DNA of 64,000 nt. Origin: an uncultured Candidatus Saccharibacteria bacterium (GTDB lineage Bacteria > Patescibacteriota > Minisyncoccia > Phycocordibacterales > DATDWN01). The stretch spans positions 175,161 through 239,160 of the forward strand of contig CAZQVT010000001.1 of NCBI GenBank assembly GCA_964596875.1, written 5' to 3'. The notes below the pieces were generated by a model. It saw only the letters and a list, made by a program, of their open reading frames with translations, made no database searches and was not told the origin of the DNA. The position numbers and the translations under genes were made by a program. Every line of letters begins with the position of its first letter. Positions within the stretch are counted from its first letter, which is position 1. Positions 5,164 to 63,390 of the stretch are shown one piece after another.

Positions 5164-5192
5164 TTGACGTTTATTTAAATAAATGATATACT
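5164..5192 (+). promoter_or_regulatory. sigma70-like promoter TTGACG-17-TATACT driving GC-rich small ORF
   Basis: near-consensus -35/-10 with 17-nt spacer ~55 nt upstream of ORF; GGGAGG RBS at ~5233. Confidence 0.55.
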
Positions 5193-5247
5193 ATATATAG
5201 GTTAATCCGCTCAAGGTTTTGCCTTGGGAGAAGGGAGGTAGATCAAA

Positions 5248-5460
5248 ATGACGCCACTTGCGAGTGAAGTACCGATCGTTCCGAGCATCATTCCTCTGTT
5301 GTTCGGTGAAGAGGGTGACTCCGGAGACGACGGAGACAACGGAAGCTCCGGAGACGACGGAGACGGCGGAACCGGTCAGGGTGATGATCCGGGGGATTCT
5401 TCGGGAGATGACTCCGGACCCGACCATGACGACTACGGTCACGACTCCGATGCCGACTAG
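5248..5460 (+). CDS. small acidic Asp/Gly/Ser-rich protein (70 aa), GC-rich minicassette 1
   Basis: ATG 9 nt downstream of GGGAGG; hydrophobic N-terminus then D/G/S low-complexity tail; internal DNA tandem repeats; GC far above flanks. Confidence 0.4.
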   Translation: MTPLASEVPIVPSIIPLLFGEEGDSGDDGDNGSSGDDGDGGTGQGDDPGDSSGDDSGPDHDDYGHDSDAD

Positions 5461-5486
5461 TTCGGCATGTGACTGACTGACGAGAG

Positions 5487-5513
5487 CGCCACTACCAATC
5501 CGGTAGTGGCGCT
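5487..5513 (+). terminator. hairpin GCGCCACTACC-AATCC-GGTAGTGGCGC after small ORF
   Basis: perfect 11-bp inverted repeat followed by short T stretch. Confidence 0.5.
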
Positions 5514-5539
5514 CGAACTTTTATATTATAATTTTACAC

Positions 5540-8190: not shown

Positions 8191-9737
8191 ATTTATTTGG
8201 TATCACATCCATTATAATATTTTTCGCAAGTATAGGCTTTGGGCTGTTTTTGTACTCATCCAACAGAGAGTCACGAGTAAACAGGTCGTGGTTTGTCGTT
8301 TCGATATTCGTCGGACTATGGGGGCTGTCTTTATATGGAGTTACTTCAACATCAAATATTTTTATAGCAGAAAAGTGGCAGTATCTACTAGATATTTCAG
8401 CGACTCTTATTCCCGTAACGTACTTTGCGTTTGTTTGTGACTTGCTGGGCATTAATAATAGTTGGTTTAGACGTCTCATACTTTACATGGGTGCAGTCGT
8501 ATCAATTTTTAGTGTAACTCCTTATTTTAAACTTGGTGTACATGAAAAGTATGGTTTTTATTGGGTTAATCCAGGTTTTTATTATGAGGTGTTTCCATTA
8601 TTTTTTGGTGGAGTAACACTTATATGTTTAGTTTTTTTGATAATTGGATATAAAAATTCTAAAGATAGTGTGTTCAAGGCTCAAATTAGAAACACATTGT
8701 TGGCAGGGATTATAGGTTTTGGTGGTGGAATTACAAATTTTTTCCCGCAAGTTATAAATATATATCCTTTCGGTAACTATTTTGTGATTCTTTACGTTGC
8801 TTTGATGAGTTATGGAGTTTTGAGATATAAACTTTTGAGTAAAAAAATTATATCCGCTCAACTAGTGAGCGGTGCAATTGTTTTAGTATTTTTGTTTAAT
8901 CTATTACAACCATCATCCTTATTGAACTGGATAGTTAATTTGATTTTGTTTATCTTAGTTCTTATATTTTCAATCTTACTGGTTAAGGGTGTATATAATG
9001 AAATTAGTCAAAAAGAGCAGATAGAGAAACTTGCGGATGATTTGCAAACTGCGAACCAAGGACAAGTAAACCTGATCCATGTTATGAACCACCAAGTTAA
9101 GGGACATTTGGGAAATGCAAAAAATATTTTTGCTGAACTTCTAACTGACGATTATGGAGCAATGCCGGAAGATGCAAAACCACTTTTGGAAAAAGGATTA
9201 CAAGAAACGAATTTGGGAGTGGAGTATGTGCAAAACATATTGCGAGGTGCTTCTGCTGTTACTGGAACTCTGCCTTTTGATATGAAGCCAATAAACTTTA
9301 AGGAAATAGTAGAGGCTGTTTTTGAAAAACAAAAAGGCTACGCAGAAAATAAAGGGCTAAATATTTCTTTGGATATTAAGGAGGGTAAATATGATTTGAC
9401 GGGGGACAGTATACAACTTTCTGAGGCGGTTAAAAATCTTATCGATAATTCCGTGAATTATACGGAAAAAGGAAATATAGATGTAACTCTTTCTCAAGAA
9501 GATAAAATAAGTTTTGTAATAAAGGATACTGGTGTGGGAATTTCGGATGAGGACAAGCCAAAACTATTTAAGTCTGGAGGAAGAGGAACTGATTCACTAA
9601 AAATAAATATAAACTCAACTGGTTATGGTTTGGCTTTTGTAAAAGGTGTTGCTGAAGCACATAAGGGGAAAGTCTCAGCAATATCAGAGGGCGTTGGCAA
9701 AGGATCACAATTTGTACTAGAATTGCCTAAAAACTAA
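8187..9737 (+). CDS. sensor histidine kinase with multi-TM N-terminal domain (orphan)
   Basis: ~6 TM helices, H-box HVMNHQVKGHL, N/G boxes (DNSVNYT, GVGISDED, GYGLAF); ATGA overlap with upstream gene. Confidence 0.8.
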   Translation: MNLFGITSIIIFFASIGFGLFLYSSNRESRVNRSWFVVSIFVGLWGLSLYGVTSTSNIFIAEKWQYLLDISATLIPVTYFAFVCDLLGINNSWFRRLILYMGAVVSIFSVTPYFKLGVHEKYGFYWVNPGFYYEVFPLFFGGVTLICLVFLIIGYKNSKDSVFKAQIRNTLLAGIIGFGGGITNFFPQVINIYPFGNYFVILYVALMSYGVLRYKLLSKKIISAQLVSGAIVLVFLFNLLQPSSLLNWIVNLILFILVLIFSILLVKGVYNEISQKEQIEKLADDLQTANQGQVNLIHVMNHQVKGHLGNAKNIFAELLTDDYGAMPEDAKPLLEKGLQETNLGVEYVQNILRGASAVTGTLPFDMKPINFKEIVEAVFEKQKGYAENKGLNISLDIKEGKYDLTGDSIQLSEAVKNLIDNSVNYTEKGNIDVTLSQEDKISFVIKDTGVGISDEDKPKLFKSGGRGTDSLKININSTGYGLAFVKGVAEAHKGKVSAISEGVGKGSQFVLELPKN

Positions 9738-10426
9738 TGGCACAGGAACAAGTTTGGGACAGGGAATACAAAACATCAAAGCTTTTAACAAAAGACAACA
9801 AACCACAGTCAGATGTGGTGCGTTTTGTTAAATACTTAAAAAAAGATATTAGTTTTCAAATAGAAGGTGCGCAAGTTTTAGATCTTGGTTCTGGCGCAGG
9901 TAGAAACAGTTTTTATTTTGCAGAACTGGGTGCGAGTGTTGTGGGGCTTGAGATATCTAAAACTGCAGTAGAGATCGCAAATAAATACGCAACTGTGGCT
10001 GGGCTCAATATAAAATACATAAAACAAAGTATTGGAGAGACTTTTCCGGTAGAGGATAGTTCAGTAGACATTTTATTAGATATTACATCTTCAAACTCAT
10101 TAGATGAAAAAGAAAGAGAAGTTTATTTAAGCGAATCTCACAGAGTTTTGAAAAATAATGGAATATTTTTTGTAAAAGCACTTTGTTCGGAAGGGGATGA
10201 GAATGCAAAATTTTTAATAAAAAACCATCCTGGTAAGGAAAAAGATACATATATAATGCCGGAACTTGGTGTCACAGAACGTGTTTGGAGTAAGCAGGAT
10301 TTTGTAGATACTTATTCAAAATATTTCAAAGTATTGAATATGGAGAAAAAAACTAGTTATTCGAGGATGAATGGTCGCGTCTACAAACGTAACTTCTGGA
10401 TTTGTTACCTAAAAACAGAAAAATAG
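9737..10426 (+). CDS. class I SAM-dependent methyltransferase
   Basis: motif I VLDLGSGAGRN; TAATG overlap with kinase. Confidence 0.8.
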   Translation: MAQEQVWDREYKTSKLLTKDNKPQSDVVRFVKYLKKDISFQIEGAQVLDLGSGAGRNSFYFAELGASVVGLEISKTAVEIANKYATVAGLNIKYIKQSIGETFPVEDSSVDILLDITSSNSLDEKEREVYLSESHRVLKNNGIFFVKALCSEGDENAKFLIKNHPGKEKDTYIMPELGVTERVWSKQDFVDTYSKYFKVLNMEKKTSYSRMNGRVYKRNFWICYLKTEK

Positions 10427-10512
10427 CATCGTCTGCGTTGTTGCAGTTCAGTTTTGTTTGTTCACCTTACTACCTGTAAGGCTCACTCACAAAACTTCCT
10501 GCGCCTAGCATC
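10427..10512 (+). repeat. intergenic structured hairpin element, copy A (nested stems GTTTTGT/ACAAAAC and CCTTAC/GTAAGG)
   Basis: ~95% identical to copy B at 28221-28303; shares core with copies C, D, E. Confidence 0.7.
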
Positions 10513-10569
10513 CAATACTATTTATCTCCTTTTAGATTTACAAATGTTGTTTATCTGTAAAAATAAACA

Positions 10570-10597
10570 TTGACAAAATAGTTTTATTGTGTAATTT
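10570..10597 (+). promoter_or_regulatory. sigma70-like promoter TTGACA-16/17-TAATTT for GC-rich ORF
   Basis: consensus -35, AT-rich -10, AGGAGGG RBS at ~10621. Confidence 0.5.
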
Positions 10598-10633
10598 TAA
10601 TGTTGAACTGTTCCGACCCAAGGAGGGTCAAAG

Positions 10634-11305
10634 ATGGCGAAAAGCGTGAAAAAGGCTAAGGCTCGTCGAAACAACTGGAAGCGCGAAGCGACCGAAATCA
10701 TGGAGTTGCTGAAGGGCGCCAAGGCAACCATCGAGGCTCTCGAGCTCAAGCAGACTCAGTCGGATTCGGAGCTCGTCGGGGTGAAGGCCGAACTCGAATC
10801 GGCGAAGGCCGAACTCGACAAGGCCAAGGAAGAACTCGGTGCCGTGAAGGCCAAGTTGGCCGAAGTGGAGGCCGGCCTGTCGGCGCTGGAGACCACCAAC
10901 AAGGACCTGGTCAACAGGAACTTCGCTCTGGAAAGCGGCTTCTACGGCTCGCGTAGCAAGTCGCGTCGGCTCGAGAGTCGAAATCGCGAACTGCGGTTGG
11001 AAATCGACTCGCGCCGTCGGCTCGCCGGGGTTCTGGCTGTGTTTCATCACGCCAGTACCTGCACGGAGGACTGCTTAGAGGAGTTCGCGGCAGCCGGCCG
11101 GGCTGTGGGCGTCGACATCGACAAGATCGACAAGGCCCATGTGTCGGAAGCCTACAAGGCAGCCGGCCGTCGGCTTCACAAGCTGACCTGGGAGAAGGGT
11201 ATCCGCATGACCAAGTCGCACATGAGCCCTCAGTCAGCGACGGACTCACTCGAGGCTACGATCAACGCTGTCGAGCAGATGCTCGGGATGCGCGATCGGG
11301 TCTAG
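10634..11305 (+). CDS. coiled-coil hypothetical protein (223 aa), GC-rich minicassette 2
   Basis: heptad-like E/K/A/L-rich N-terminal half; strong RBS; GC ~58% vs ~35% flanks. Confidence 0.5.
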   Translation: MAKSVKKAKARRNNWKREATEIMELLKGAKATIEALELKQTQSDSELVGVKAELESAKAELDKAKEELGAVKAKLAEVEAGLSALETTNKDLVNRNFALESGFYGSRSKSRRLESRNRELRLEIDSRRRLAGVLAVFHHASTCTEDCLEEFAAAGRAVGVDIDKIDKAHVSEAYKAAGRRLHKLTWEKGIRMTKSHMSPQSATDSLEATINAVEQMLGMRDRV

Positions 11306-11323
11306 CCGAGGGGTGTAGAAGGT

Positions 11324-11358
11324 GGGGTGGCTTCGGTCGCCCCAGCTTCTTTTTTTTA
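11324..11358 (+). terminator. GC-rich hairpin + T9 run
   Basis: GGGGTGGC-TTCG-GTCGCCCC stem (with wobbles) followed by TTTTTTTTT. Confidence 0.6.
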
Positions 11359-15984: not shown

Positions 15985-16518
15985 ATGAAAAATGAAATAA
16001 AAATTATAGATAAGTTGCCCGTTGAAAGATGGGAGGAGTATAAAGAGTTAAGACTAGAAGCTCTAAGGACTGACCCAAGTGCCTTTTGGGCAGACTTTGA
16101 CTCCACTGAAAAGGTGGAAGATAAGGAGTGGAAAACCGAACTGGAAAGAAATATAAATGGCGATGAAATAATTATTTTTGCTGAATACGATAATAAATTA
16201 ATTGGTATGGGTACAGTTTATTTGTATGAAAGAGAAGATTGCAAACACAACGCCACATTGAAATCATTGTACGTTTCACCTGAACATAGAGGTAAAAAAA
16301 TAGGTGAAATTCTAGTAAAAAGAAGAATAGAGCTGATTCTTGAAAAACCTTACATTAGGAATATATTTTGTGAAATATTTGGGTATAACGTTTCTTCGAT
16401 AGAGCTTCATAAAAAACTTGGATTTGAAGAGGTTGGCAAAGTTAAGGATTTTATATTGCTAGATGGTAAGTATTTTGACTCACTAACTTTTCAAAAGAGG
16501 TTTGGTCAGAGAGAATAA
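15985..16518 (+). CDS. GNAT family N-acetyltransferase
   Basis: 177 aa, acetyl-CoA motif RGKKIGEIL. Confidence 0.7.
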   Translation: MKNEIKIIDKLPVERWEEYKELRLEALRTDPSAFWADFDSTEKVEDKEWKTELERNINGDEIIIFAEYDNKLIGMGTVYLYEREDCKHNATLKSLYVSPEHRGKKIGEILVKRRIELILEKPYIRNIFCEIFGYNVSSIELHKKLGFEEVGKVKDFILLDGKYFDSLTFQKRFGQRE

Positions 16519-16538
16519 ATATGTTAGATTAGGAACAT

Positions 16539-16648
16539 ATGATCCCGTAAGAAATAGAAGGAGATCGGGATTACCATTATCAGATAATTCAAATAATTAA
16601 ATAAGGAGTAGTAATTAAATATACGATCTCCTATTTCAAACGGGATGA
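16539..16648 (+). promoter_or_regulatory. structured leader / TIR element L1 enclosing aspS start codon
   Basis: 5' arm ATGATCCCGTAAGAAAT pairs with 3' arm ATTTCAAACGGGATGA (ATG = aspS start); same arms in L2 and L3. Confidence 0.6.
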
Positions 16649-18039
16649 CAAGAATTTATATTAAAGATTTGGGGGCACATGTGGGGGAGGAGGTCACTAT
16701 TAAAGGCTGGGTAGACGTACGCCGAGACCAAGGAAAAATGGTCTTTATCGATATGCGAGATATGTCTGGCCGAGTTCAGTGTGTGGTTTTGCCAAACTAT
16801 ACAGAGGTTATTGAAAAGGTTAAAGAAGTTAGAACAGAATGGGTTCTAGAACTAAAAGGAAAAGTAAACAAAAGACCAGAAAGAAACATTAAGGCTGGTG
16901 TACTAAACGGGGATATTGAGCTAGAGGTTACTGGACTAGAAGTTCTAAACAAGTCTGACACTATCCCTTTTGATATTTCAGGAGATACAAAAGAGATAAA
17001 CGAAGAGGTGAGACTAAAATATAGATATGTAGATCTTCGTTCTGACCGAATGCAGAAAAACATTCGAAACCGTCACAAGGTAATAAAACACATACGAGAT
17101 TTTCTAGATAAAGAAAACTTTATTGAGGTGGAAACTCCAATGCTAACAAAATCTACACCAGAAGGTTCTCGAGACTATGTTGTTCCAGCTAGACTATATC
17201 CTGGAAAGTTTTATGCATTGCCACAGTCTCCACAACAGTACAAACAACTACTTATGACATCTGGAGTTGAAAAATATTTCCAAATAGCCCGATGTATGCG
17301 TGACGAGGACACTCGTGGAGACAGACAACCAGAGTTTACACAACTTGATATGGAAATATCTTTCGTTGCACGCGAGGATGTAATGGAGCTAAACGAGAAA
17401 CTACTTATAGATCTAGTTACAAAACTTTATCCAGAAAAGAAAATCCAACAGGTTCCTTTCCCACGACTTACATATGCGGAGGCAATGGAGAAATACAACT
17501 CTGACAAACCAGACCTGCGAGAAGATAAAAACGATCCGAACCTTTTGGCATTCTGCTGGGTGATAGATTTTCCTTTCTTTGAGAAAACTGACACAGGAGC
17601 ATGGACATTTACTCATAACCCATTTTCTAGACCAAAACCTGAACACATGGATTGGTTAATGAAGAAAGAAAATATTGCTGAGATACTTACAACTCAATAC
17701 GACGTTGCGCTAAACGGCTTTGAAATCGGTGGGGGAAGTATAAGAAACCATAACCCAGAGGCACTAGAAAAAGTTTTTGAAATCATGGGTCACAGTATGG
17801 AAAACATCAAAGCAAACTTTGGTCACATGCTTTCTGCATTTTCATTAGGTACTCCACCGCACGGAGGTATAGCGTGGGGACTAGATAGACTTGTTATGCT
17901 ACTACAAAACGAACCAAACATTCGTGAAGTTATTCCTTTTGCAAAAACTGGTGAAGGTAAGGACCCTATGATGGATTCTCCAAGTGAAATCTCTGACGAG
18001 CAACTGCTTGAACTAAATATCAAAACACTAAAGAAATAA
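16645..18039 (+). CDS. aspS: aspartate--tRNA ligase (short form without GAD insertion)
   Basis: class II motifs FYALPQSPQ, GGGSIRNHN; N-terminal OB fold; 464 aa. Confidence 0.8.
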   Translation: MTRIYIKDLGAHVGEEVTIKGWVDVRRDQGKMVFIDMRDMSGRVQCVVLPNYTEVIEKVKEVRTEWVLELKGKVNKRPERNIKAGVLNGDIELEVTGLEVLNKSDTIPFDISGDTKEINEEVRLKYRYVDLRSDRMQKNIRNRHKVIKHIRDFLDKENFIEVETPMLTKSTPEGSRDYVVPARLYPGKFYALPQSPQQYKQLLMTSGVEKYFQIARCMRDEDTRGDRQPEFTQLDMEISFVAREDVMELNEKLLIDLVTKLYPEKKIQQVPFPRLTYAEAMEKYNSDKPDLREDKNDPNLLAFCWVIDFPFFEKTDTGAWTFTHNPFSRPKPEHMDWLMKKENIAEILTTQYDVALNGFEIGGGSIRNHNPEALEKVFEIMGHSMENIKANFGHMLSAFSLGTPPHGGIAWGLDRLVMLLQNEPNIREVIPFAKTGEGKDPMMDSPSEISDEQLLELNIKTLKK

Positions 18040-19090: not shown

Positions 19091-19213
19091 ACTTCCAAAT
19101 TTGGCGATCTACTCGTTTCAAAATTGAAAATGTTCGTCACCTTACTACTTGTAAGGCTTCTCACATTTTCAATTCCTCAACTTTGTGTCTCATCCAAATT
19201 GTGAAAGTTTGTT
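19091..19213 (+). repeat. intergenic structured hairpin element, copy C
   Basis: outer stem ATTGAAAATG/CATTTTCAAT, internal loop TTCGTCA/CTTCTCA, inner stem CCTTAC/GTAAGG, 3' tail CAAATTGTGAAAGTTTG; homologous to copy D. Confidence 0.7.
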
Positions 19214-20713: not shown

Positions 20714-20840
20714 AAAATTTTCAAATTTGGCCAATCTCATCTTCTAAATTTTCAAAATTCTCGTCACCTTAGCACTAACTAAGGCTTCTCACATTTTCAA
20801 AATTTATAAGCGACCTTGTCTCAAATTGTGAAAGTTTGAA
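20714..20840 (+). repeat. intergenic structured hairpin element, copy D
   Basis: inner stem CCTTAG/CTAAGG compensatory relative to copy C; conserved flanks and GTGAAAGTTTG tail. Confidence 0.7.
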
Positions 20841-20850
20841 AAGTTTTTGT

Positions 20851-20898
20851 AAACGAAAAGGCCGACACGATAGTCTGTATGACCTGATCGTATCGGCC
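20851..20898 (-). terminator. hairpin GGCCGA(T)ACGAT...ATCGT(G)TCGGCC + TTTTCGTTT ending GC-rich minicassette 3
   Basis: 11-bp imperfect inverted repeat followed by T run on - strand, just after stop of 20917 ORF. Confidence 0.55.
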
Positions 20899-20916
20899 GA
20901 AGCCCGTGTGTGTGGG

Positions 20917-21186
20917 CTAGAACCGCTTACTGACGTACTTGAGTGCTTCCCAGGTGAGTAACACCAGTGAGGAGTACACGATTGGCAGTGACGCCAGTCC
21001 GTACTCGTAGCTCTCGGTGAACATGGAGACCATGAGTCCCAGAGTCAGTACTCCGTGCAGAAGCAGGGGAACGAAGTACAGTACTATTGCAGGGAGAACG
21101 AGGCTAATGATTGCCCCGAACACCCTGAGCCACTTGTCGTCTCGATACCCGCCCATGAGGAGCGGGTTAAAGCCCAAGCATCCCAT
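20917..21186 (-). CDS. hypothetical small membrane protein (89 aa, ~2 TM), gene 3 of GC-rich minicassette 3
   Basis: ATG preceded by GGAGGAGCG; hydrophobic helices; GC-rich. Confidence 0.45.
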   Translation of the reverse strand: MGCLGFNPLLMGGYRDDKWLRVFGAIISLVLPAIVLYFVPLLLHGVLTLGLMVSMFTESYEYGLASLPIVYSSLVLLTWEALKYVSKRF

Positions 21187-21194
21187 CGCTCCTC

Positions 21195-21299
21195 CTACAT
21201 CTTGAAGGCGATAACCGCCAGGATTACGGCGATGCAGCCCAAGGCGAATTGGATTTCTCTTGTAGCCTTCTTGAAGTACTCGAACTGTTCTTCGGTCAT
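21195..21299 (-). CDS. 34-aa single-TM peptide (MTEEQFEYFKKATREIQFALGCIAVILAVIAFKM), gene 2 of minicassette 3
   Basis: not in ORF track (<60 aa); ATG 6 nt after TAGGAGGCT RBS; stop 8 nt before next ATG. Confidence 0.4.
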   Translation of the reverse strand: MTEEQFEYFKKATREIQFALGCIAVILAVIAFKM

Positions 21300-21309
21300 G
21301 CCTAGCCTC

Positions 21310-21735
21310 CTATCGAAGTTGGACCATCTCGCCGACCACGTCGTCCTTGCCTTCGAGGCTTTGGACGATGAAGTTGGTTGCTCCGCAGGCGTCGCAGAGG
21401 AACTTCACGACATCCATCTTCTGGATCTCGAGTTCCTCCACCTTGTCGATCGTGACGAAGTTCTTGTCGACGATCTTGCCGAGATGCACTCGGACCTTGC
21501 CCGTTGTGTTCAACTTGAACGCGATCACTCCGGGCTTGGTGTCGTACCGGAGCTTCATCCCGATGGCGCTGTGAGGCACGATGGTGAACTGGACGGAGTT
21601 TTCAAGTGCGATCGCGTACGGCTTCATGGGCTGGGTTGTTTCCACCCAGTAAACCATTGAAACTATCGCGACCGTGAGTGCGCAAATGACGAGTATTCCT
21701 CGCCAGTGGCGGGACAGAGTAGTGTCTTCGGTCAT
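21310..21735 (-). CDS. hypothetical membrane-anchored protein (141 aa, N-terminal TM), gene 1 of minicassette 3
   Basis: ATG 6 nt after GGAGGCC RBS, consensus promoter upstream. Confidence 0.5.
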   Translation of the reverse strand: MTEDTTLSRHWRGILVICALTVAIVSMVYWVETTQPMKPYAIALENSVQFTIVPHSAIGMKLRYDTKPGVIAFKLNTTGKVRVHLGKIVDKNFVTIDKVEELEIQKMDVVKFLCDACGATNFIVQSLEGKDDVVGEMVQLR

Positions 21736-21754
21736 GCTGTGGCCTCCGATATTA

Positions 21755-21782
21755 ATTATATCATTTATACAGTATAAGTCAA
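21755..21782 (-). promoter_or_regulatory. consensus sigma70 promoter TTGACT-16-TATAAT (on - strand)
   Basis: read from reverse complement; 5'UTR GTATAAATGATATAATTAATATCGGAGGCCACAGCATG is homologous to 5'UTR of cassette 6. Confidence 0.6.
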
Positions 21783-21798
21783 GGTATAAAAACCTTCA

Positions 21799-21828
21799 TT
21801 TTAGACACATTTCCGGCCTTAGGGTATA
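21799..21828 (+). promoter_or_regulatory. putative asnB promoter TTAGAC-18-TATACT, near-leaderless
   Basis: -10 element ends 8 nt before ATG at 21837; divergent from cassette 3 promoter. Confidence 0.3.
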
Positions 21829-21836
21829 CTTTGTAC

Positions 21837-26952: not shown

Positions 26953-27078
26953 ATGAATCCCGTAAGAAATTATTTAGTTAAAAGGATGAATGTGGTTATG
27001 TGTGATAAAATTATTCGAACAAACATTATTATTAATTTTATATACGGAAACTAAAGTTTCCTATTTCAAACGGGATGA
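26953..27078 (+). promoter_or_regulatory. structured leader / TIR element L2 enclosing murG start codon
   Basis: 5' arm ATGAATCCCGTAAGAAAT, penultimate hairpin ACGGAAAC-TAAA-GTTTCC, 3' arm TATTTCAAACGGGATGA. Confidence 0.6.
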
Positions 27079-28208: not shown

Positions 28209-28220
28209 TTAAAATTAACT

Positions 28221-28303
28221 CATCTGCGTTGTTGCAGTTCAGTTTTGTTCGTTCACCTTACTACTTGTAAGGCTCACTCACAAAACATCCTGCGCCTAGC
28301 ATC
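28221..28303 (+). repeat. intergenic structured hairpin element, copy B
   Basis: ~95% identical to copy A over ~85 nt. Confidence 0.7.
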
Positions 28304-28336
28304 TGAACCAATTTAAATCATCTCAGAACAAATTAT

Positions 28337-31843: not shown

Positions 31844-33052
31844 TTAAATAAATTGCTTGATCATGTGTTCGAATCCAATTGTATCAGGTGTGCCTCCAAG
31901 CAAACCGAGTCTATACTTCTTCTTTAAATTATCCCTATTTTTTACATCCTTCAATTCAGATACCTTGTAAACAATTGAATTATGCTTCTCTTTTTCCACA
32001 ATAAAAGTTTGATCAAGATTCAGGAGCTCTAAGGTTTCGTGATTATGTGTCGCAAAAAAAATTTGAGCATTACCAGTATTTATATCTTTGTTTTTAAATA
32101 AAGATATAATTGATTTCTCTATTTCTGGGTGAAAATACAAATTTGTCTCGTCATAGACAACTAAACCGCCCTTTTTGAAGACAGTAAGTAAATTATATAT
32201 ATGTGCAAAAAGCTCCTTTGTTCCAGCTGATTCTTGCATTAAATCTACGCTTTCATAAAAACCTTTATGTGAAACTTTCACTGATGATGTATTGTTTTCA
32301 ATATCAAGTGATTCAATAGTGTCGTCAAATCGACTCATTATATCTCTAGTAAGTTTTATCATTTCTTCTTTCTTGTTTTTTTCAGCAGTACTTATTCGAA
32401 ATGCATGAGATATTATTCCAAAAATAGTTGGCATAGAATCTAGCTCCGCAGTTTTCGTAAACCAGGACTTTAAATCCCTAAAATAATTAAAATCTTGACC
32501 AGCCCTAAACCCCTCTATTAGATGTGATAGAAGGGTTTGGTACTCAGCAAGCTTTAAAACTGAAAAATATGATTTATGATCTTTGAAGTCTGGGCCAAAA
32601 GTTATTTTTCCATTGAGTCTGTTGAATACAAGCTTAGGTTTTCCAGATTTTAACTTTGTGTTAGTTACGAACAGAGTTTCCGAGCTAATATTTTTTCTAT
32701 CCTTAATTTCTATGTCGTATTTGTAATAGTTTTCATTCAACAAAATATCTATACCAAGCTTGGTTGGTTTATTTTTAAAAGTAGAATGAAAGTTGTTGTA
32801 GGCTAAAATAGTGTCTTTTTGTTCAGGAGTAAGTGTTGTTTTTGTATACATTAAACGTATAAGCGAACTGATTGCTTTTAAAATAGTACTTTTGCCACTA
32901 GCATTAGCACCGTAGAATCCATTTAGAAGAGAAATCTTCTGATTTTTAAAGTTTAAATATCCATCTTCAGTAGTAGAACCTCCCTTTATAAAGTTCAATT
33001 CTAGTGGTTTACCAACAGAATAAAAGTTTGCTAAACGTATTTTTGTTATCAT
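31844..33052 (-). CDS. AAA_21/ABC-type ATPase, RloA/AbiLi-like
   Basis: Walker A GANASGKST, Walker B VVYDE, H-loop ATHNHE; 402 aa; low GC. Confidence 0.7.
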   Translation of the reverse strand: MITKIRLANFYSVGKPLELNFIKGGSTTEDGYLNFKNQKISLLNGFYGANASGKSTILKAISSLIRLMYTKTTLTPEQKDTILAYNNFHSTFKNKPTKLGIDILLNENYYKYDIEIKDRKNISSETLFVTNTKLKSGKPKLVFNRLNGKITFGPDFKDHKSYFSVLKLAEYQTLLSHLIEGFRAGQDFNYFRDLKSWFTKTAELDSMPTIFGIISHAFRISTAEKNKKEEMIKLTRDIMSRFDDTIESLDIENNTSSVKVSHKGFYESVDLMQESAGTKELFAHIYNLLTVFKKGGLVVYDETNLYFHPEIEKSIISLFKNKDINTGNAQIFFATHNHETLELLNLDQTFIVEKEKHNSIVYKVSELKDVKNRDNLKKKYRLGLLGGTPDTIGFEHMIKQFI

Positions 33053-33557
33053 ATTAATATTTATGCAATAAAATGTACAATTTAAAGTATAGTACCTTAA
33101 ATTAAATACGTCAAACCTTAGGGCAGGGGACTTCCCTACAAATAATAGGAAATTTTAGAACCTCAAATAATGGGGTTCGGATGGTAAAAGGGGTGCTATC
33201 TAGGTACCTAGAAAAGAGAACTCTAAGCCAATTATTTGGTGCATTTTTATATATAAATATTTAATGAAAACCATTTAATGATTAAACTGAACAAACGAAT
33301 CTTTTGAGCAAACCCCCTTAGGGACTATGCTAAAAAGATATATTGTGCGACACGGCTATATACTCCCCCCCTCTATATAACTAACTAAAAACAATAAAAC
33401 ATTTAATTACTAAAATAATTGAATATGTAATTATTTTGCATCAAAAAAATCCCGCCCCCACCCCACCCTGGTTCAGCCGGTTTACACAAAAGTAAAAATA
33501 CATATACTTATTACGAAACACAATATCCGTTCTTTTCGGTTTCTGGAGGTTCGCGCC

Positions 33558-34007
33558 ATGAATGGCATTGAAGGAAACGTTCAGCTGGTGTTCGTGCTGA
33601 TGGGCGTGATCTCTGGTCTTTTGGGCGGAATTGCCCACGCCAAGAAACGGCACGGTTTGGGGTGCTACAAGAACGGCACTCTGAGTCTGACACCACAGTG
33701 GTACCGCTGTGGCAGTTGCTGGACTGCCGTAGTCTTCTACGCGGTTTTCATGGGCTGCATTTTTGCGCTCATGCACGACATTTACTACGCTGGCACTCAG
33801 ACAGTTGGAGGTGCCATCGGACAAGTTGTCGTCACGTTTTTTGGTGTCATATTGTCTGCCGTGTTGACGTTAGCGGTGGCACTGCTGGGCTTGCTTGCCA
33901 TCGGCTACTCGGAACATCGCTGGCCTCAGTGTCGTAAGTATAAGTGGATCTCCTACAGCTTCGCAGTCATCGTTCGAACGTATCTCTATCACCTCACTAG
34001 ATACTAG
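33558..34007 (+). CDS. hypothetical integral membrane protein (149 aa, ~4 TM, Cys-containing), GC-rich minicassette 4
   Basis: ATG 7 nt after GGAGG; GC-rich. Confidence 0.45.
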   Translation: MNGIEGNVQLVFVLMGVISGLLGGIAHAKKRHGLGCYKNGTLSLTPQWYRCGSCWTAVVFYAVFMGCIFALMHDIYYAGTQTVGGAIGQVVVTFFGVILSAVLTLAVALLGLLAIGYSEHRWPQCRKYKWISYSFAVIVRTYLYHLTRY

Positions 34008-34028
34008 GAGCGCAGACAACCACCACAC

Positions 34029-34077
34029 ATCGCAAGTCGCAAGATCCGGAGGATCGCAAGGCGACTTGCGATTTTCC
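34029..34077 (+). terminator. 12-bp perfect hairpin ATCGCAAGTCGC...GCGACTTGCGAT + TTT
   Basis: immediately after 33558-34007 ORF; two further small hairpins follow. Confidence 0.55.
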
Positions 34078-34982: not shown

Positions 34983-36053
34983 CTATAGACCCTCGTTTCT
35001 AAGACCCTCTATAGTCTTTTTTGCGTCTTTTGAGAGTTTGTGAGGCATAACTATGCTTGTTATGACCAATATATCACCCCTACTTCCCCTATCTAGGGCG
35101 ACACCCTTGCCTTTGATACGAAGTATTTCTCCATGTTTTAGACCCTCTGGTACTTTTAGGGTGATATCGCCTTCTAGAGTTTTGATAACAGTTTCGCCTC
35201 CCAGGATGGCATCGGTAAGTTTGACTGGAAGATCCATGACAAGGTTTGCACCTTCTTTTCTAAAGAAAGCATGTTTTTTAACGTAAACCTTTATATACAA
35301 GTCTCCTGACTGGCCAGAGGCTATGGCTTCCCCTGCCCCAGATAGGCGGATCATTTCTCCACTTTCTATACCTGCGGGAATATGGACTTTTATCTCTGTT
35401 TCGCGTTTTAGTAGGCCCTCTCCGCGACAAGTTTCACATTTATTTTTAGGGACTTTGCCAGCACCGTGACAGACGTCACATGTTGTTTGAGTTTCAAACT
35501 GACCAAAGAATGTTCTTTTGACTTCGCGAATAGAGCCCTTGCCGTTACATTTTGAACAAGTCGCTTGTTCGCTACCTTTTTGTCCACCAGAACCATTGCA
35601 AGTCTCACATTTTGAAACCTTGTTTAGTAGAACTGTTTTGTCTACTCCAAAGACAGAGTCTTCGAAAGATATTTCAGTGTCGATAGATATGTCACGACCT
35701 CTTTTTGATTGTCTTCTTCCACCACCGCCAAATACATCACCAAAGATGTCACCAAAGTCGAACTCGAAGCCACCGTTCGCACCCTGCGTAAACTGTGAGA
35801 AGTCAAAACCTTCAAATCCGCCACCGAAACCACCTCCTCCCATGTTTGGACCGGCAGAGCCAAACTGGTCGTACTGCGCACGTTTCTGGTCATCAGAAAG
35901 AATCGAGTAAGCCTCGTTTATTTCTTTGAACTTTGCATCATCGCCAGTTTTTTTGTCCGGGTGATATTTATGGGCTAGGGTTCGAAAAGCCTTTTTGATC
36001 TCGTCTTTTGAGGCCTTTTTGTCGACGCCCAAAGTTTGGTAGTAATCTTTCAT
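34983..36053 (-). CDS. dnaJ: molecular chaperone DnaJ
   Basis: J domain with HPD, G/F region, four CxxCxGxG zinc-finger repeats; start at MKDYYQTLGV preferred over upstream extension. Confidence 0.9.
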   Translation of the reverse strand: MKDYYQTLGVDKKASKDEIKKAFRTLAHKYHPDKKTGDDAKFKEINEAYSILSDDQKRAQYDQFGSAGPNMGGGGFGGGFEGFDFSQFTQGANGGFEFDFGDIFGDVFGGGGRRQSKRGRDISIDTEISFEDSVFGVDKTVLLNKVSKCETCNGSGGQKGSEQATCSKCNGKGSIREVKRTFFGQFETQTTCDVCHGAGKVPKNKCETCRGEGLLKRETEIKVHIPAGIESGEMIRLSGAGEAIASGQSGDLYIKVYVKKHAFFRKEGANLVMDLPVKLTDAILGGETVIKTLEGDITLKVPEGLKHGEILRIKGKGVALDRGSRGDILVITSIVMPHKLSKDAKKTIEGLRNEGL

Positions 36054-36160
36054 GATTGTTATTATAAGGTTTTTTTGGGTAATGTATAGGTTTGACCACA
36101 CCCTATCTATAATGTAGTCTGTATTGTGGAATACGGGTCATCTTGGCCCACGGAGAAACC

Positions 36161-36496
36161 ATGAGCGAGTCTCTTTTGGGTGAGGTTAAGTTCCCAGTGC
36201 AGTTTGCCTGCGATATCTGCGGGCATCACTTTTCGTGCGAGCGAGAGGGCCTGAAGAGCCACGAAGTCAACAGGAGGCACTTTATCAGACTGATTCGTAC
36301 CACGGTCGTTGCGGCCTGTCCCGCGTGCGATGCAAACGTGGGCAGATCATTCGATGAGCTGCTTCCGGATGCTCCTAACACTCTCGGTGAACTGCGAGCG
36401 CAGTACAAAGTCGCCCGCGGCAACGGTGCTGGGCCTCTCGAGGCCATCGGCTTCGCCAAGTTCAAGATTCGTCTCGTCAAGCGGAGGATCGCATGA
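36161..36496 (+). CDS. hypothetical Cys4 zinc-ribbon protein 1, GC-rich minicassette 5
   Basis: CxxC...CxxC, Arg/Lys-rich tail, GGAG RBS; ATG 36161 preferred over TTG 36143. Confidence 0.4.
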   Translation: MSESLLGEVKFPVQFACDICGHHFSCEREGLKSHEVNRRHFIRLIRTTVVAACPACDANVGRSFDELLPDAPNTLGELRAQYKVARGNGAGPLEAIGFAKFKIRLVKRRIA

Positions 36497-36783
36497 ATCG
36501 TCAGCGCCATCGGTTTGTATGCAGCAATTGTAGTACCTCATTCGAACCGGAGTGTCCGGTCGTCCCAACGGAGAACGTTCGGTCTGAAGTTCCGAAGGCG
36601 AAGCTCCTGGAGGCGAGTTGTCCGCTTTGCGGTTACACGGTCAAGATGATCGTGAACGGAGTGTTGGACATCGAGAGGCTTCATAGCGATCCGGTGAAAC
36701 GTCAGTACTTCCATCACAGGCGTCGCGGAATGGATGCTCCTCTAGCCAGGCGCTTGGCGAACCGGCTCGCCACAAGAAACTAG
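36493..36783 (+). CDS. hypothetical Cys4 zinc-ribbon protein 2 (translationally coupled)
   Basis: ATGA start/stop overlap with previous ORF, GGAGG RBS, CxxC...CxxC, basic C-terminus. Confidence 0.4.
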   Translation: MNRQRHRFVCSNCSTSFEPECPVVPTENVRSEVPKAKLLEASCPLCGYTVKMIVNGVLDIERLHSDPVKRQYFHHRRRGMDAPLARRLANRLATRN

Positions 36784-36806
36784 TTCCCGCCCCTCTGGGG
36801 CATACC

Positions 36807-36841
36807 AGCCCGTGGCCGAGTTCGCTCGTCGCGGGCTTTGT
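36807..36841 (+). terminator. hairpin AGCCCG...CGGGCT + TTT after zinc-ribbon pair
   Basis: 6-bp GC stem with weak U tract; also GCCCC-TCT-GGGGC hairpin at 36789-36801. Confidence 0.4.
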
Positions 36842-62264: not shown

Positions 62265-63266
62265 CTAAATTCTGAACTCTATAACGTCGCCGTCCTTTAC
62301 AATATACTCCTTCCCCTCCGTCCTAACCTGCCCCTTCTCTCTCGCTACTGCATATGAACCAGACGCAAGTAAGCCATCGCAGTGAACAACTTCTGCACGT
62401 ATAAACTTATCTTTAAAGTCTGTATGTATTGCTGTTCCTGCCATAGGCGCGCTCCAACCTTTCTCTATAGTCCATGCGCGACTCTCGTCCTCACCTGTCG
62501 TAAAATAAGTAATTAGTCCCAAAGTTTCGTATGCTTTTTTAATTAGATCGTCGAAACCCTTTTCAAAAACTGGATCAATCTCAACAAAGTTTCCAGGGAT
62601 TCTATCTTTTACATCCAAAACATTTTCACTACTCGCCTCCGATGTGTTTAGTGCATACAAAATAGGTTTCATCGTCAAAAGGTGCATGTTTTTTACAACT
62701 TCTAGTTCTTCTTCGGTCAGCAAAAGAGTATTTGCAAGTTTGCCTTGTTTTAAAGTCTCCTGTACTTTTGTAAGAACTTCGTTTTCAAAAACAGCTTCTT
62801 TTTTGTTTTGTTTTACTTCACGCTGAATATTTCCAAGTCTTTTTGTTATAGTTTCGTCATCCGCCAAAACTAGTTCGTAGTTTATAACATCTATATCTCC
62901 TAGTGGGTCAACTTTTCCATGCACATGGATAACATCGTCGTCCTTGAATACTCGCACCATTTCAAGAATCGCATCTACCTCACGAATATTAGTCAAAAAT
63001 TTATTTCCTAGACCTTCTCCTGCTGCCGCCCCTTTTACAAGACCTGCAATATCAACAAACTCGATAACTGCTGGGATAGTTTTCGCAGATTTAGAAAGTT
63101 CTGAAAGTTTCCAAAGTCTTTCGTCTGGAACAGGCACAATACCAACAGATGGGTCGATAGTACAAAAAGGATAGTTTTCTGCCGGAACGCCTTTTTTTGT
63201 AAGTGCATTAAAAAGCGTAGATTTACCCACGTTTGGAAGGCCAACGATACCTATAGAAAGTTTCAT
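62265..63266 (-). CDS. ychF: ribosome-binding ATPase YchF (Obg family)
   Basis: G1 GLPNVGKST, C-terminal TGS domain. Confidence 0.85.
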   Translation of the reverse strand: MKLSIGIVGLPNVGKSTLFNALTKKGVPAENYPFCTIDPSVGIVPVPDERLWKLSELSKSAKTIPAVIEFVDIAGLVKGAAAGEGLGNKFLTNIREVDAILEMVRVFKDDDVIHVHGKVDPLGDIDVINYELVLADDETITKRLGNIQREVKQNKKEAVFENEVLTKVQETLKQGKLANTLLLTEEELEVVKNMHLLTMKPILYALNTSEASSENVLDVKDRIPGNFVEIDPVFEKGFDDLIKKAYETLGLITYFTTGEDESRAWTIEKGWSAPMAGTAIHTDFKDKFIRAEVVHCDGLLASGSYAVAREKGQVRTEGKEYIVKDGDVIEFRI

Positions 63267-63390
63267 CCCGTTTGAGATAGGAAACCTGTGGTTTCCGTAG
63301 TTAAATTATGTTTTATTAAATTATTTCGACCACTTAGTTATTTATAAATATATTTTTCAACATTAACCACGTAATCTCTTACGGGATCAT
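63263..63390 (-). promoter_or_regulatory. structured leader / TIR element L3 enclosing ychF start codon
   Basis: on - strand: ATGATCCCGTAAGAGAT ... ACGGAAACCACAGGTTTCC TATCTCAAACGGGATGA. Confidence 0.6.

Follow-up and report, generated by a model that had tools for sequence, protein, structure and literature searches.

Architecture of the cassette

A compact three-gene unit, hereafter the cassette, occupies positions 20851–21782 on the minus strand of the window, the full 64-kb stretch of DNA that was analysed; L-numbers denote related loci. The local gene order is scpA, scpB, dac (encoding a Peptidase_S11 D-Ala-D-Ala carboxypeptidase), cassette, asnB, mraY, ftsW and murG. The cassette comprises three open reading frames (ORFs), here called A, S and B, each preceded by a GGAGG Shine–Dalgarno (SD) sequence and jointly framed by a promoter and an intrinsic terminator (Table 1). 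In 200-nucleotide (nt) windows, the GC content is 0.54–0.56 over 20900–21700 and 0.30–0.40 on either side, in a surrounding genome of ~0.36. A first-pass annotation of this DNA had described a GC-rich, self-contained and compositionally foreign unit of three tightly coupled, GGAGG-led ORFs, placed between a long hairpin and the divergent asnB promoter, and the composition and coordinates bear out each of these points.

The same annotation had proposed a TTGACT–16–TATAAT promoter and a terminator consisting of a hairpin plus a tract. The promoter is the sole exact match to TTGACN-N15–19-TATAAT in the window. A single match is not rare, since at least one was obtained in 34 of 100 shuffles; better support is provided by the presence of the promoter in all of the orthologous loci, with the TTGACN and –10 boxes kept at the same place in L002, L003, L009, L010, L013, L016, L017 and L094. 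Transcription would start near 21748, giving a leader of ~13 nt that carries the GGAGG of gene A.

The terminator is likewise confirmed. Across eight orthologous loci, 94.5% of the cells in the stem alignment are paired and three pairs show compensatory changes, compared with 23–50% for slid-register controls. A simple terminator scan overlooked this hairpin owing to its internal bulge. Promoter, SDs and terminator all recur in the orthologous loci, and the SD cores are kept before every intact orthologue. As read from the sequence, these signals imply a single transcript of ~0.9 kb that starts near 21748, ends near 20855 and codes for three small envelope proteins.

Both junctions of the cassette are reproduced in an independent Logan assembly of the source run (L001), and orthologous loci with the same layout are found in more than eight other samples. 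On the asnB side, only 6 nt separate the end of the divergent promoter from the ATG, and asnB is therefore probably transcribed as a leaderless mRNA. On the dac side, the long imperfect hairpin stands outside the cassette proper.

Table 1. Positions of the cassette, its boundary features and the sister cassettes in the window.
Feature	Position	Strand	Description
Cassette	20851–21782	–	Promoter, A, S, B, terminator
Promoter	21755–21782	–	–35 TTGACT 21782–21777, 16-nt spacer with TG, –10 TATAAT 21760–21755; 11/12
SD of gene A	21743–21747	–	GGAGG
ORF A	21310–21735	–	141 amino acids, GGAGG-led
SD of gene S	~21311–21307	–	GGAGG
ORF S	21195–21299	–	34 amino acids; 10-nt spacer after A, GGAGG in spacer
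SD of gene B	~21197–21193	–	GGAGG
ORF B	20917–21186	–	89 amino acids; 8-nt spacer after S, GGAGG in spacer
Intrinsic terminator	20851–20898	–	Bulged hairpin 20898–20860 (12 + 4 bp), U-tract UUUUCGUUU 20859–20851
asnB promoter (boundary)	21802–21830	+	Divergent; TAGACA-17-TATACT; 6 nt short of asnB ATG 21837
Long imperfect hairpin (boundary)	20719–20833	+	Between dac stop (20713) and cassette terminator
Sister cassette 1	5164–5520	+	TTGACG-17-TATACT, GGAGG, 70-amino-acid acidic D/G-rich (D/G-repeat) ORF 5248–5460, 13-bp-stem terminator 5484–5514
Sister cassette 2	10570–11350	+	TTGACA promoter, GGAGG, 223-amino-acid coiled-coil ORF 10634–11305, terminator 11323–11344
Sister cassette 4	33481–34075	+	TTTACA-16-TATACT, GGAGG, 149-amino-acid ORF 33558–34007 with three transmembrane segments, GC-rich terminator hairpin
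Sister cassette 5	36036–36840	+	Overlapping CxxC zinc-ribbon-like ORFs 36161–36496 and 36493–36783, terminator; antisense between dnaJ and dnaK

Proteins encoded by the cassette

Protein A has a short cytoplasmic tail at its N-terminus containing R9 and R12, one transmembrane (TM) helix (residues 13–29) and then a domain of ~105 amino acids. Because basic residues precede the single TM helix, this C-terminal domain should face outward. The invariant and most conserved stretch of the protein is MD..KF.CDACGA, whose CxxC motif could form a disulfide in the extracytoplasmic domain. The structure model of full-length A is poor, with a predicted local distance difference test score (pLDDT) of 64; the ectodomain modelled alone reaches a pLDDT of 81 and a predicted TM-score (pTM) of 0.70 and forms an eight-stranded beta-sandwich. 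Fold searches returned generic jelly-roll matches only, and the eight-stranded sandwich can be superposed on known members of that fold. A is thus predicted to be anchored in the membrane in type II orientation and to carry, outside the cytoplasm, a jelly-roll beta-sandwich of the receptor-binding or carbohydrate-binding-module (CBM) kind.

The same jelly-roll beta-sandwich fold is found in PirA, the Bdellovibrio Bd2133 fibre tip domain, GOLD domains and CBMs. Sequence identity of A to these modules is at most 10%, without a match at the profile level. A differs from them in having an N-terminal TM anchor with almost no stalk and the family-specific invariant CDAC motif. Furthermore, the profile of A gave no match to PDB sequences, even at E ≤ 10.

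Protein S consists of a charged N-terminal half, MTEEQFEYFKKATRE, followed by one TM segment (residues 18–32). Its N-terminus is conserved as MT(E/Q)E(Q/E)F(K/E)(Y/F), followed by the TM segment, in five genomes, which establishes this previously unannotated ORF as a genuine gene. Orthologues are present in L009/L095, L010/L011, L016 and L094; S lies 5′ of A in L009 and L010 and stands alone in L016. The N-terminus of protein B, MG....NPLLMGG, is conserved, and its C-terminus, KYVSKRF, is basic. Its hydrophobicity profile shows a long stretch at ~22–56 plus a weaker one at 63–79, consistent with two to three TM segments; the single TM segments assigned earlier to the N-terminus of A and to S stand, and the flat count of two for B gives way to this range.

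The ratio of non-synonymous to synonymous substitution rates (dN/dS) is 0.13–0.32 for A where the synonymous rate (dS) is finite, and 0.17–0.23 for B. Between L002 and L009, B has accumulated no non-synonymous and ~4 synonymous changes, with a dS of 0.06. Comparison among the orthologues marks A, S and B as genuine coding sequences under purifying selection.

Scans of all eight cassette proteins of the window against Pfam, PHROGs, PADLOC and NCBIfam gave no significant match; the earlier remark that none of the three is recognisable extends in this way to these databases and to PDB sequences. The three proteins represent three previously undescribed membrane-protein families of very narrow distribution.

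Recurrent insertion and modular rearrangement at the dac–asnB junction

Most of the 80 related species have dac and asnB in the same orientation, with a gap of 4–80 bp between them. Gaps of 50–80 bp hold the asnB promoter alone, TTTGGACA-17-TATACT, which abuts the ATG; in the empty-site species this element lies directly 3′ of the dac stop codon. By comparison with these gaps, the cassette is an insertion between the dac stop codon and the –35 box of asnB.

Around 12 species carry dac–asnB inserts of 400–1400 bp, most of them GC-rich (maximum of 0.53–0.62 versus a background of 0.35–0.42). These inserts are divergent from asnB and share the orientation and the promoter/SD/terminator build of the window cassette. 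Their cargo is unrelated: an 86-amino-acid lipoprotein, ORFans of 101, 126, 142 and 172 amino acids, and a fatty-acid desaturase. The dac–asnB junction is, on this comparative evidence, a recurrent insertion hotspot for unrelated cassettes.

The genes of the window cassette are themselves rearranged among relatives, always behind the same promoter and ahead of the same terminator. The order A-S-B of the window is replaced by A-B in L002, S-A-B in L009/L095, S-A in L010/L011 and S-B in L094, with A alone in L003 and S alone in L016. A is followed by a truncated B in L013, and B follows an unrelated 46-amino-acid TM protein in L017. As judged from these arrangements, A, S and B are independent modules, any subset of which can fill a conserved promoter–terminator slot.

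Comparison of L002 with L009 reveals ~97% identity in the flanks and the 3′ part of the cassette, with a swapped block comprising the promoter, S and the TM anchor of A. In addition, the identities of A are incongruent with the host tree, with 54% between the window and L002 and 38% between L013 and L002, though L013 is the closer host. The block swap and the incongruent identities indicate that the locus has been exchanged and reshuffled among relatives.

A separate structured element of ~120 nt was observed between the dac stop codon and the cassette terminator in L025, L034 and L036, where the cassette cargo is unrelated. It is bounded by TTTTCAGAGAC...GTCTCTGAAAAG, contains an internal box, GAGGACTAAG, and is kept across the three species.

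Distribution and search for a source

Relatives of the AsnB protein, searched among 185,579 species genomes, come from metagenome-assembled genomes (MAGs) of Zambryskibacteria, Paceibacterota, Parcubacteria and Minisyncoccia, with a best identity of 87%. On the basis of these MAGs, the host is an AT-rich, ultra-small, Zambryskibacteria-like member of the Paceibacterota, within the Candidate Phyla Radiation (CPR). In the AsnB tree the carriers of the cassette group together in a single clade, whose AsnB proteins are at least 75% identical to that of the window and which includes two empty-site species.

An exhaustive HMMER search for A retrieved four relatives among 1.84 billion representatives, all of them from the same site, and a word-index search of 5.8 billion clusters added one further A cluster. 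For B, a profile search of 5.8 billion proteins yielded four clusters, each of them located at the dac–asnB junction. All of the A and B homologues found sit at this junction, within one genus-level clade. When metagenome contigs were scanned with the A profile, the sole hit was the L002 contig, which was known already. Comparative gene order indicates that the locus is syntenic and old within the clade, not a recent insertion. The homologues are confined to one small clade, patchy and GC-rich throughout; conserved core genes of normal GC, which the first-pass annotation had named as the finding that would speak against a foreign unit, were not encountered in the relatives.

Searches beyond bacterial chromosomes were negative. 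Scans of IMG/VR with A, B and three other cassette proteins yielded no relatives. The 50,697 phage records searched by tblastn contained no match to A or B, and a blastn search of plasmids with the cassette was likewise empty. The searchable literature yielded no account of GC-rich cassettes in CPR genomes.

Sister cassettes in the window

The cassette is one of five GC islands of the window that share the same build: a sigma-70-type promoter, a GGAGG or GGAG sequence, one or more ORFs with a GC content at third codon positions (GC3) of 0.59–0.78, and a GC-rich terminator (Table 1). The 223-amino-acid ORF of sister cassette 2, with a GC3 of 0.78, lies between a methyltransferase gene and an ABC-transporter gene, a site at which L003 has an unrelated 151-amino-acid cassette. 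Coiled-coil matches of the 223-amino-acid protein were set aside as compositional. The proteins of the sister cassettes belong to no known family and match no phage contig. Further GC-rich cassettes occupy other junctions in L017, L030, L044 and L054. A repeat common to all five window cassettes was sought and not found.

Beside sister cassette 4, a 402-amino-acid gene of host composition (31844–33052, minus strand) matches AAA_21, a putative AbiEii-toxin-type ATPase family associated with type IV toxin–antitoxin systems and abortive infection. This possible defence gene adjoins a long AT-rich non-coding stretch at 33053–33440.

Codon composition and translation-initiation signals

The GC3 of A, S and B is 0.72–0.78 (0.74 for S and 0.72 for B), against a mean of 0.28 and a range of 0.20–0.38 in 37 host genes. 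Codon choice is inverted, with AAG used at 100% in the cassette versus 23% in the host and third-position T at 0.08 versus 0.35. Host-type translational selection was considered as a cause of the high GC3 and ruled out by the ribosomal-protein genes and dnaK, with a GC3 of 0.20–0.28.

The unusual composition extends to the relatives. Between the window and L002, the synonymous sites of A and B are near saturation: the proportion of synonymous differences (pS) is 0.65–0.66, with a ceiling at this composition estimated at ~0.69, and dS is ~1.5 or more. The GC3 of the cassette is 0.70–0.73 in L002 and 0.52–0.54 in the sister subclade, whereas that of dac, asnB, mraY and scpB is 0.19–0.36 in all of the compared genomes. 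Under a standard two-state amelioration model with a host equilibrium of ~0.28, neutral synonymous turnover of this extent should erase most of the GC3 excess.

The cassette genes are also set apart by their translation-initiation signals. An SD core of at least 4 nt precedes none of 51 host genes in the window versus all eight cassette ORFs (GGAGG in seven, GGAG in one). Many host genes have a TATAAT-like –10 box 6–10 nt before the ATG, a layout that suggests widespread leaderless mRNAs. The SD contrast between cassette and host genes is repeated in L003, L013 and L095, and SDs are also present in orthologous cassettes and in the unrelated cassettes of other species. These SDs persist amid diverged neighbouring bases and thus seem to be under selection. 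No rRNA was found in the window or in the first 96 related loci, and hence no 16S 3′ end in which to read an anti-SD.

An exception to the link between high GC and SD was noticed in L095, where a 213-amino-acid GNAT acetyltransferase (16477–17118), with a GC3 of 0.72 in a 38% GC genome, is not preceded by an SD.

Origin and maintenance of the cassette

We consider the cassette to be a moron-like, horizontally acquired accessory envelope module in a CPR chromosome, and assign this a probability of roughly 0.55. An ancestor of a single genus-level clade would have received the unit horizontally from an SD-using source of higher GC content; as a non-essential module, it would then have been passed down with losses, reshuffling and exchange among relatives. 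Its signals suggest that it is probably expressed constitutively and strongly. According to its model, A may be a ligand-binding jelly-roll kept close to the membrane, while S and B, both small integral proteins, may serve as partners or act independently. The likeliest role would lie at the cell envelope, in the binding or masking of a ligand on the surface or in the membrane; if moron cargo is a guide, candidate uses would be phage exclusion or the modulation of contact with the symbiont's host cell.

Several observations weigh against this account. No donor with an A or B homologue in a GC-rich organism, phage or plasmid was found in the protein, phage, plasmid, IMG/VR and metagenome searches. 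No mobility gene, target duplication or recombination site was detected at the cassette, and the filled and empty sites are too diverged to fix the insertion boundaries. The cassette resides among housekeeping genes (scpAB-dac on one side, asnB-mraY-ftsW-murG on the other) and so is no moron in the strict sense. Regarding the translation signals, an anti-SD motif has been detected in only 48% of Parcubacteria (Tsurumaki et al., PMC9297842). Finally, amelioration predicts the decay of GC3 to the host level, and no such decay is seen despite near-saturated synonymous sites; ancient transfer followed by neutral drift is therefore insufficient. The persistence of both the GC-rich codons and the SDs suggests the hypothesis that the two are linked and selected. 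For example, structured GC-rich messages might depend on an SD in a cell where initiation otherwise takes place on unstructured or leaderless mRNAs.

This persistence is also what a native origin would explain. The cassettes could form a GC-rich, SD-dependent expression compartment for accessory envelope genes, maintained by selection, for example for anti-SD control or mRNA stability. The GC3 of 0.70–0.78 held by the window and L002 at saturated dS, the intermediate value of the sister subclade set against that of the host genes, and the SDs conserved before intact orthologues and unrelated cassettes alike would all be expected of such a compartment. The five cassettes of the same build in the window and the lack of an external donor for A or B in 15 billion proteins agree with it as well. 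However, the highly expressed host genes prefer A/T-ending codons, the patchy distribution, with unrelated cargo at one and the same site, suggests gain and loss, and the acetyltransferase of L095 combines a high GC3 with the absence of an SD. To our knowledge, there is no mechanism that selects a GC3 near 0.75 in a few genes. A native compartment is thus possible, although we regard it as unlikely.

The first-pass annotation had likened the trio to holin/antiholin, bacteriocin-immunity or membrane toxin–antitoxin arrangements, that is, to a module of interacting small membrane proteins. Three such proteins are indeed encoded by one tightly coupled operon, S has the size of a type I toxin, and B is holin-like in its size and basic C-terminus; hydrophobic segments combined with a charged tail are a generic property. 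Partners of the holin/antiholin, toxin/antitoxin and bacteriocin/immunity kinds must be co-inherited. Here, A alone, S alone, S-B, A-B and S-A all occur behind one promoter, and genes found singly and in many combinations are incompatible with an obligate killer/protector pair. The cassette contains no endolysin, precursor, leader-peptide motif, exporter or modification gene, S has no leader-type motif, no match was obtained in PHROGs, PADLOC, Pfam or NCBIfam, and the housekeeping flanks provide no prophage context. The likeness is accordingly not supported, and a module of this type is improbable.

The high GC content could instead be the product of GC-biased gene conversion at a recombination hotspot, reflecting neither origin nor selection. 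The segment swap between L002 and L009 within 97% identical flanks, the tree-incongruent identities of A and the recurrent use of the junction speak for it, the locus being recombinationally active. Nevertheless, the shift of +0.45 in GC3 is very large, and its edges fall sharply at the ORF block, the adjoining promoter and intergenic DNA being AT-rich. The dac and asnB flanks must share in the exchanges, yet they keep a GC3 of 0.19–0.36, and conversion leaves the accompanying SDs unaccounted for. These points make gene conversion a doubtful source of the composition. Last, a chimeric join with a GC-richer organism during assembly or binning, as the abrupt change of composition in a MAG might suggest, can be practically dismissed, given that the independent assembly repeats both junctions, that orthologous cassettes are present in more than eight samples and assemblers, and that promoter and terminator are conserved, the latter with covariation.

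Comparison with known systems

The moron-like reading rests on a definition established for phage genomes: a moron has its own promoter and terminator, a deviating GC content and an insertion site between genes that are adjacent in relatives (PMC3594210). Examples of the concept of Juhala and Hendrix are gene 15 of HK97 and bor and lom of lambda (reviewed in PMC3594210). The cassette resembles phage morons in its own sigma-70 promoter and factor-independent terminator, its deviating composition and its position between genes adjacent in relatives. The likeness extends to the cargo, which in phage morons is often a small inner-membrane protein or a lipoprotein with an accessory role such as superinfection exclusion, and here likewise consists of small membrane proteins. 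Apart from its housekeeping neighbourhood, the cassette differs from phage morons in being much GC-richer than its host, unameliorated across the clade and distinct in its translation-initiation signal.

Flexible genomic islets and replacement hotspots, such as surface-antigen and defence islets, share with the locus the unrelated cargo at one junction, the patchy distribution and the exchange of alleles via homologous flanks. Unlike these islets, the units described here measure 0.4–1.4 kb and hold one to three genes, each unit with a consensus promoter, SD and terminator, and no tRNA, integrase or transposase was seen adjoining the cassette.

Integron gene cassettes are also small, mostly one-gene ORFan units found at defined sites, with cargo swapped among relatives. 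They are normally promoterless. The present cassettes have promoters of their own, are scattered at separate junctions and lack an attC-type site, the sole conserved 3′ structure being the terminator hairpin with its U-tract. No integrase was found among the genes adjacent to the cassettes, a statement that covers those neighbours rather than all of the window ORFs.

Finally, holin/antiholin lysis cassettes and type I membrane toxin systems share with the cassette a compact operon whose products are short, hydrophobic and charged at their termini. They differ in that the cassette has no lysin, no antisense RNA or antitoxin logic and no sequence kinship to them, and in that its components occur independently. 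Relative to morons and islets, the features that appear to be new are the chromosomal location in CPR, a GC content above that of the host, the lack of amelioration across a genus-level clade, and the marking by SDs.

Other elements of the window and related loci

The long hairpin beside the cassette belongs to a family of imperfect intergenic hairpins with four copies in the window (10420–10536, ~19095–19200, 20719–20833 and 28211–28327) and the core TCACCTTACTACYTGTAAGGCT. Two of the copies are 85% identical over 117 nt, and every copy lies 3′ of a plus-strand host gene. A GC-rich cassette adjoins only two of the four; related elements stand at the same places in L002/L009 and L003. The hairpins may be elements resembling repetitive extragenic palindromes (REP) or host terminators. 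The copy at 20719–20833 had been considered as an attC-like or mobility element, a possibility ruled out by its membership of a four-copy family with two copies away from cassettes.

Three leaders of ~110 nt were noticed at 16530–16647, 26960–27077 and 63264–63385 (minus strand). They precede genes for a class II aminoacyl-tRNA synthetase (D/K/N type), a murG-like glycosyltransferase and ychF, and share a 5′ box, ATCCCGTAAGARAT, and a 3′ box, TTTCCTATYTCAAACGGG, which abuts the ATG. Pairing of CCCGT with ACGGG is possible and would mask the start; no Rfam match was obtained at the gathering threshold. These leaders may represent an undescribed cis-regulatory leader.

In L083, a GC-rich island (0.60) at 8958–9575, in a relative of 40% GC, contains a 205-amino-acid fragment that by eye resembles an IS66-family transposase (...CDHLPLYRQ...). 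It is the only candidate mobility gene noticed in the ~0.8 Mb of related loci scanned for GC-rich islands.

Implications for CPR bacteria

The CPR, or Patescibacteria, make up a large and almost uncultured share of bacterial diversity, in which the gain and expression of accessory functions are poorly known. The locus shows a repeated mode of gene gain, by tiny promoter-to-terminator units placed between core genes and recurring at the same junctions. Their products are for the most part novel small proteins of the envelope and obvious candidates for a role in contact with host cells or phages. The three new families described here could be taken up for experimental study; one of them, A, has a confidently predicted fold.

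The cassette is also a natural test of the amelioration model, with an alien codon usage kept past synonymous saturation. A more speculative proposal, to which we give rather little weight, is that two gene "dialects" coexist in some Paceibacterota: an AT-rich, SD-less and largely leaderless core, and scattered, self-contained accessory cassettes kept GC-rich and SD-dependent by selection over long stretches of evolution. In its boldest form, the signals of the cassettes would be tuned for expression in the bacterial host of the symbiont and not in the symbiont itself. If the proposal is true, envelope and accessory genes would have a regime of translation or mRNA stability of their own, with the segment at 20851–21782 as the best-documented example. 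The SD split, if genome-wide, would bear on whether and how SD-led initiation works in Parcubacteria.

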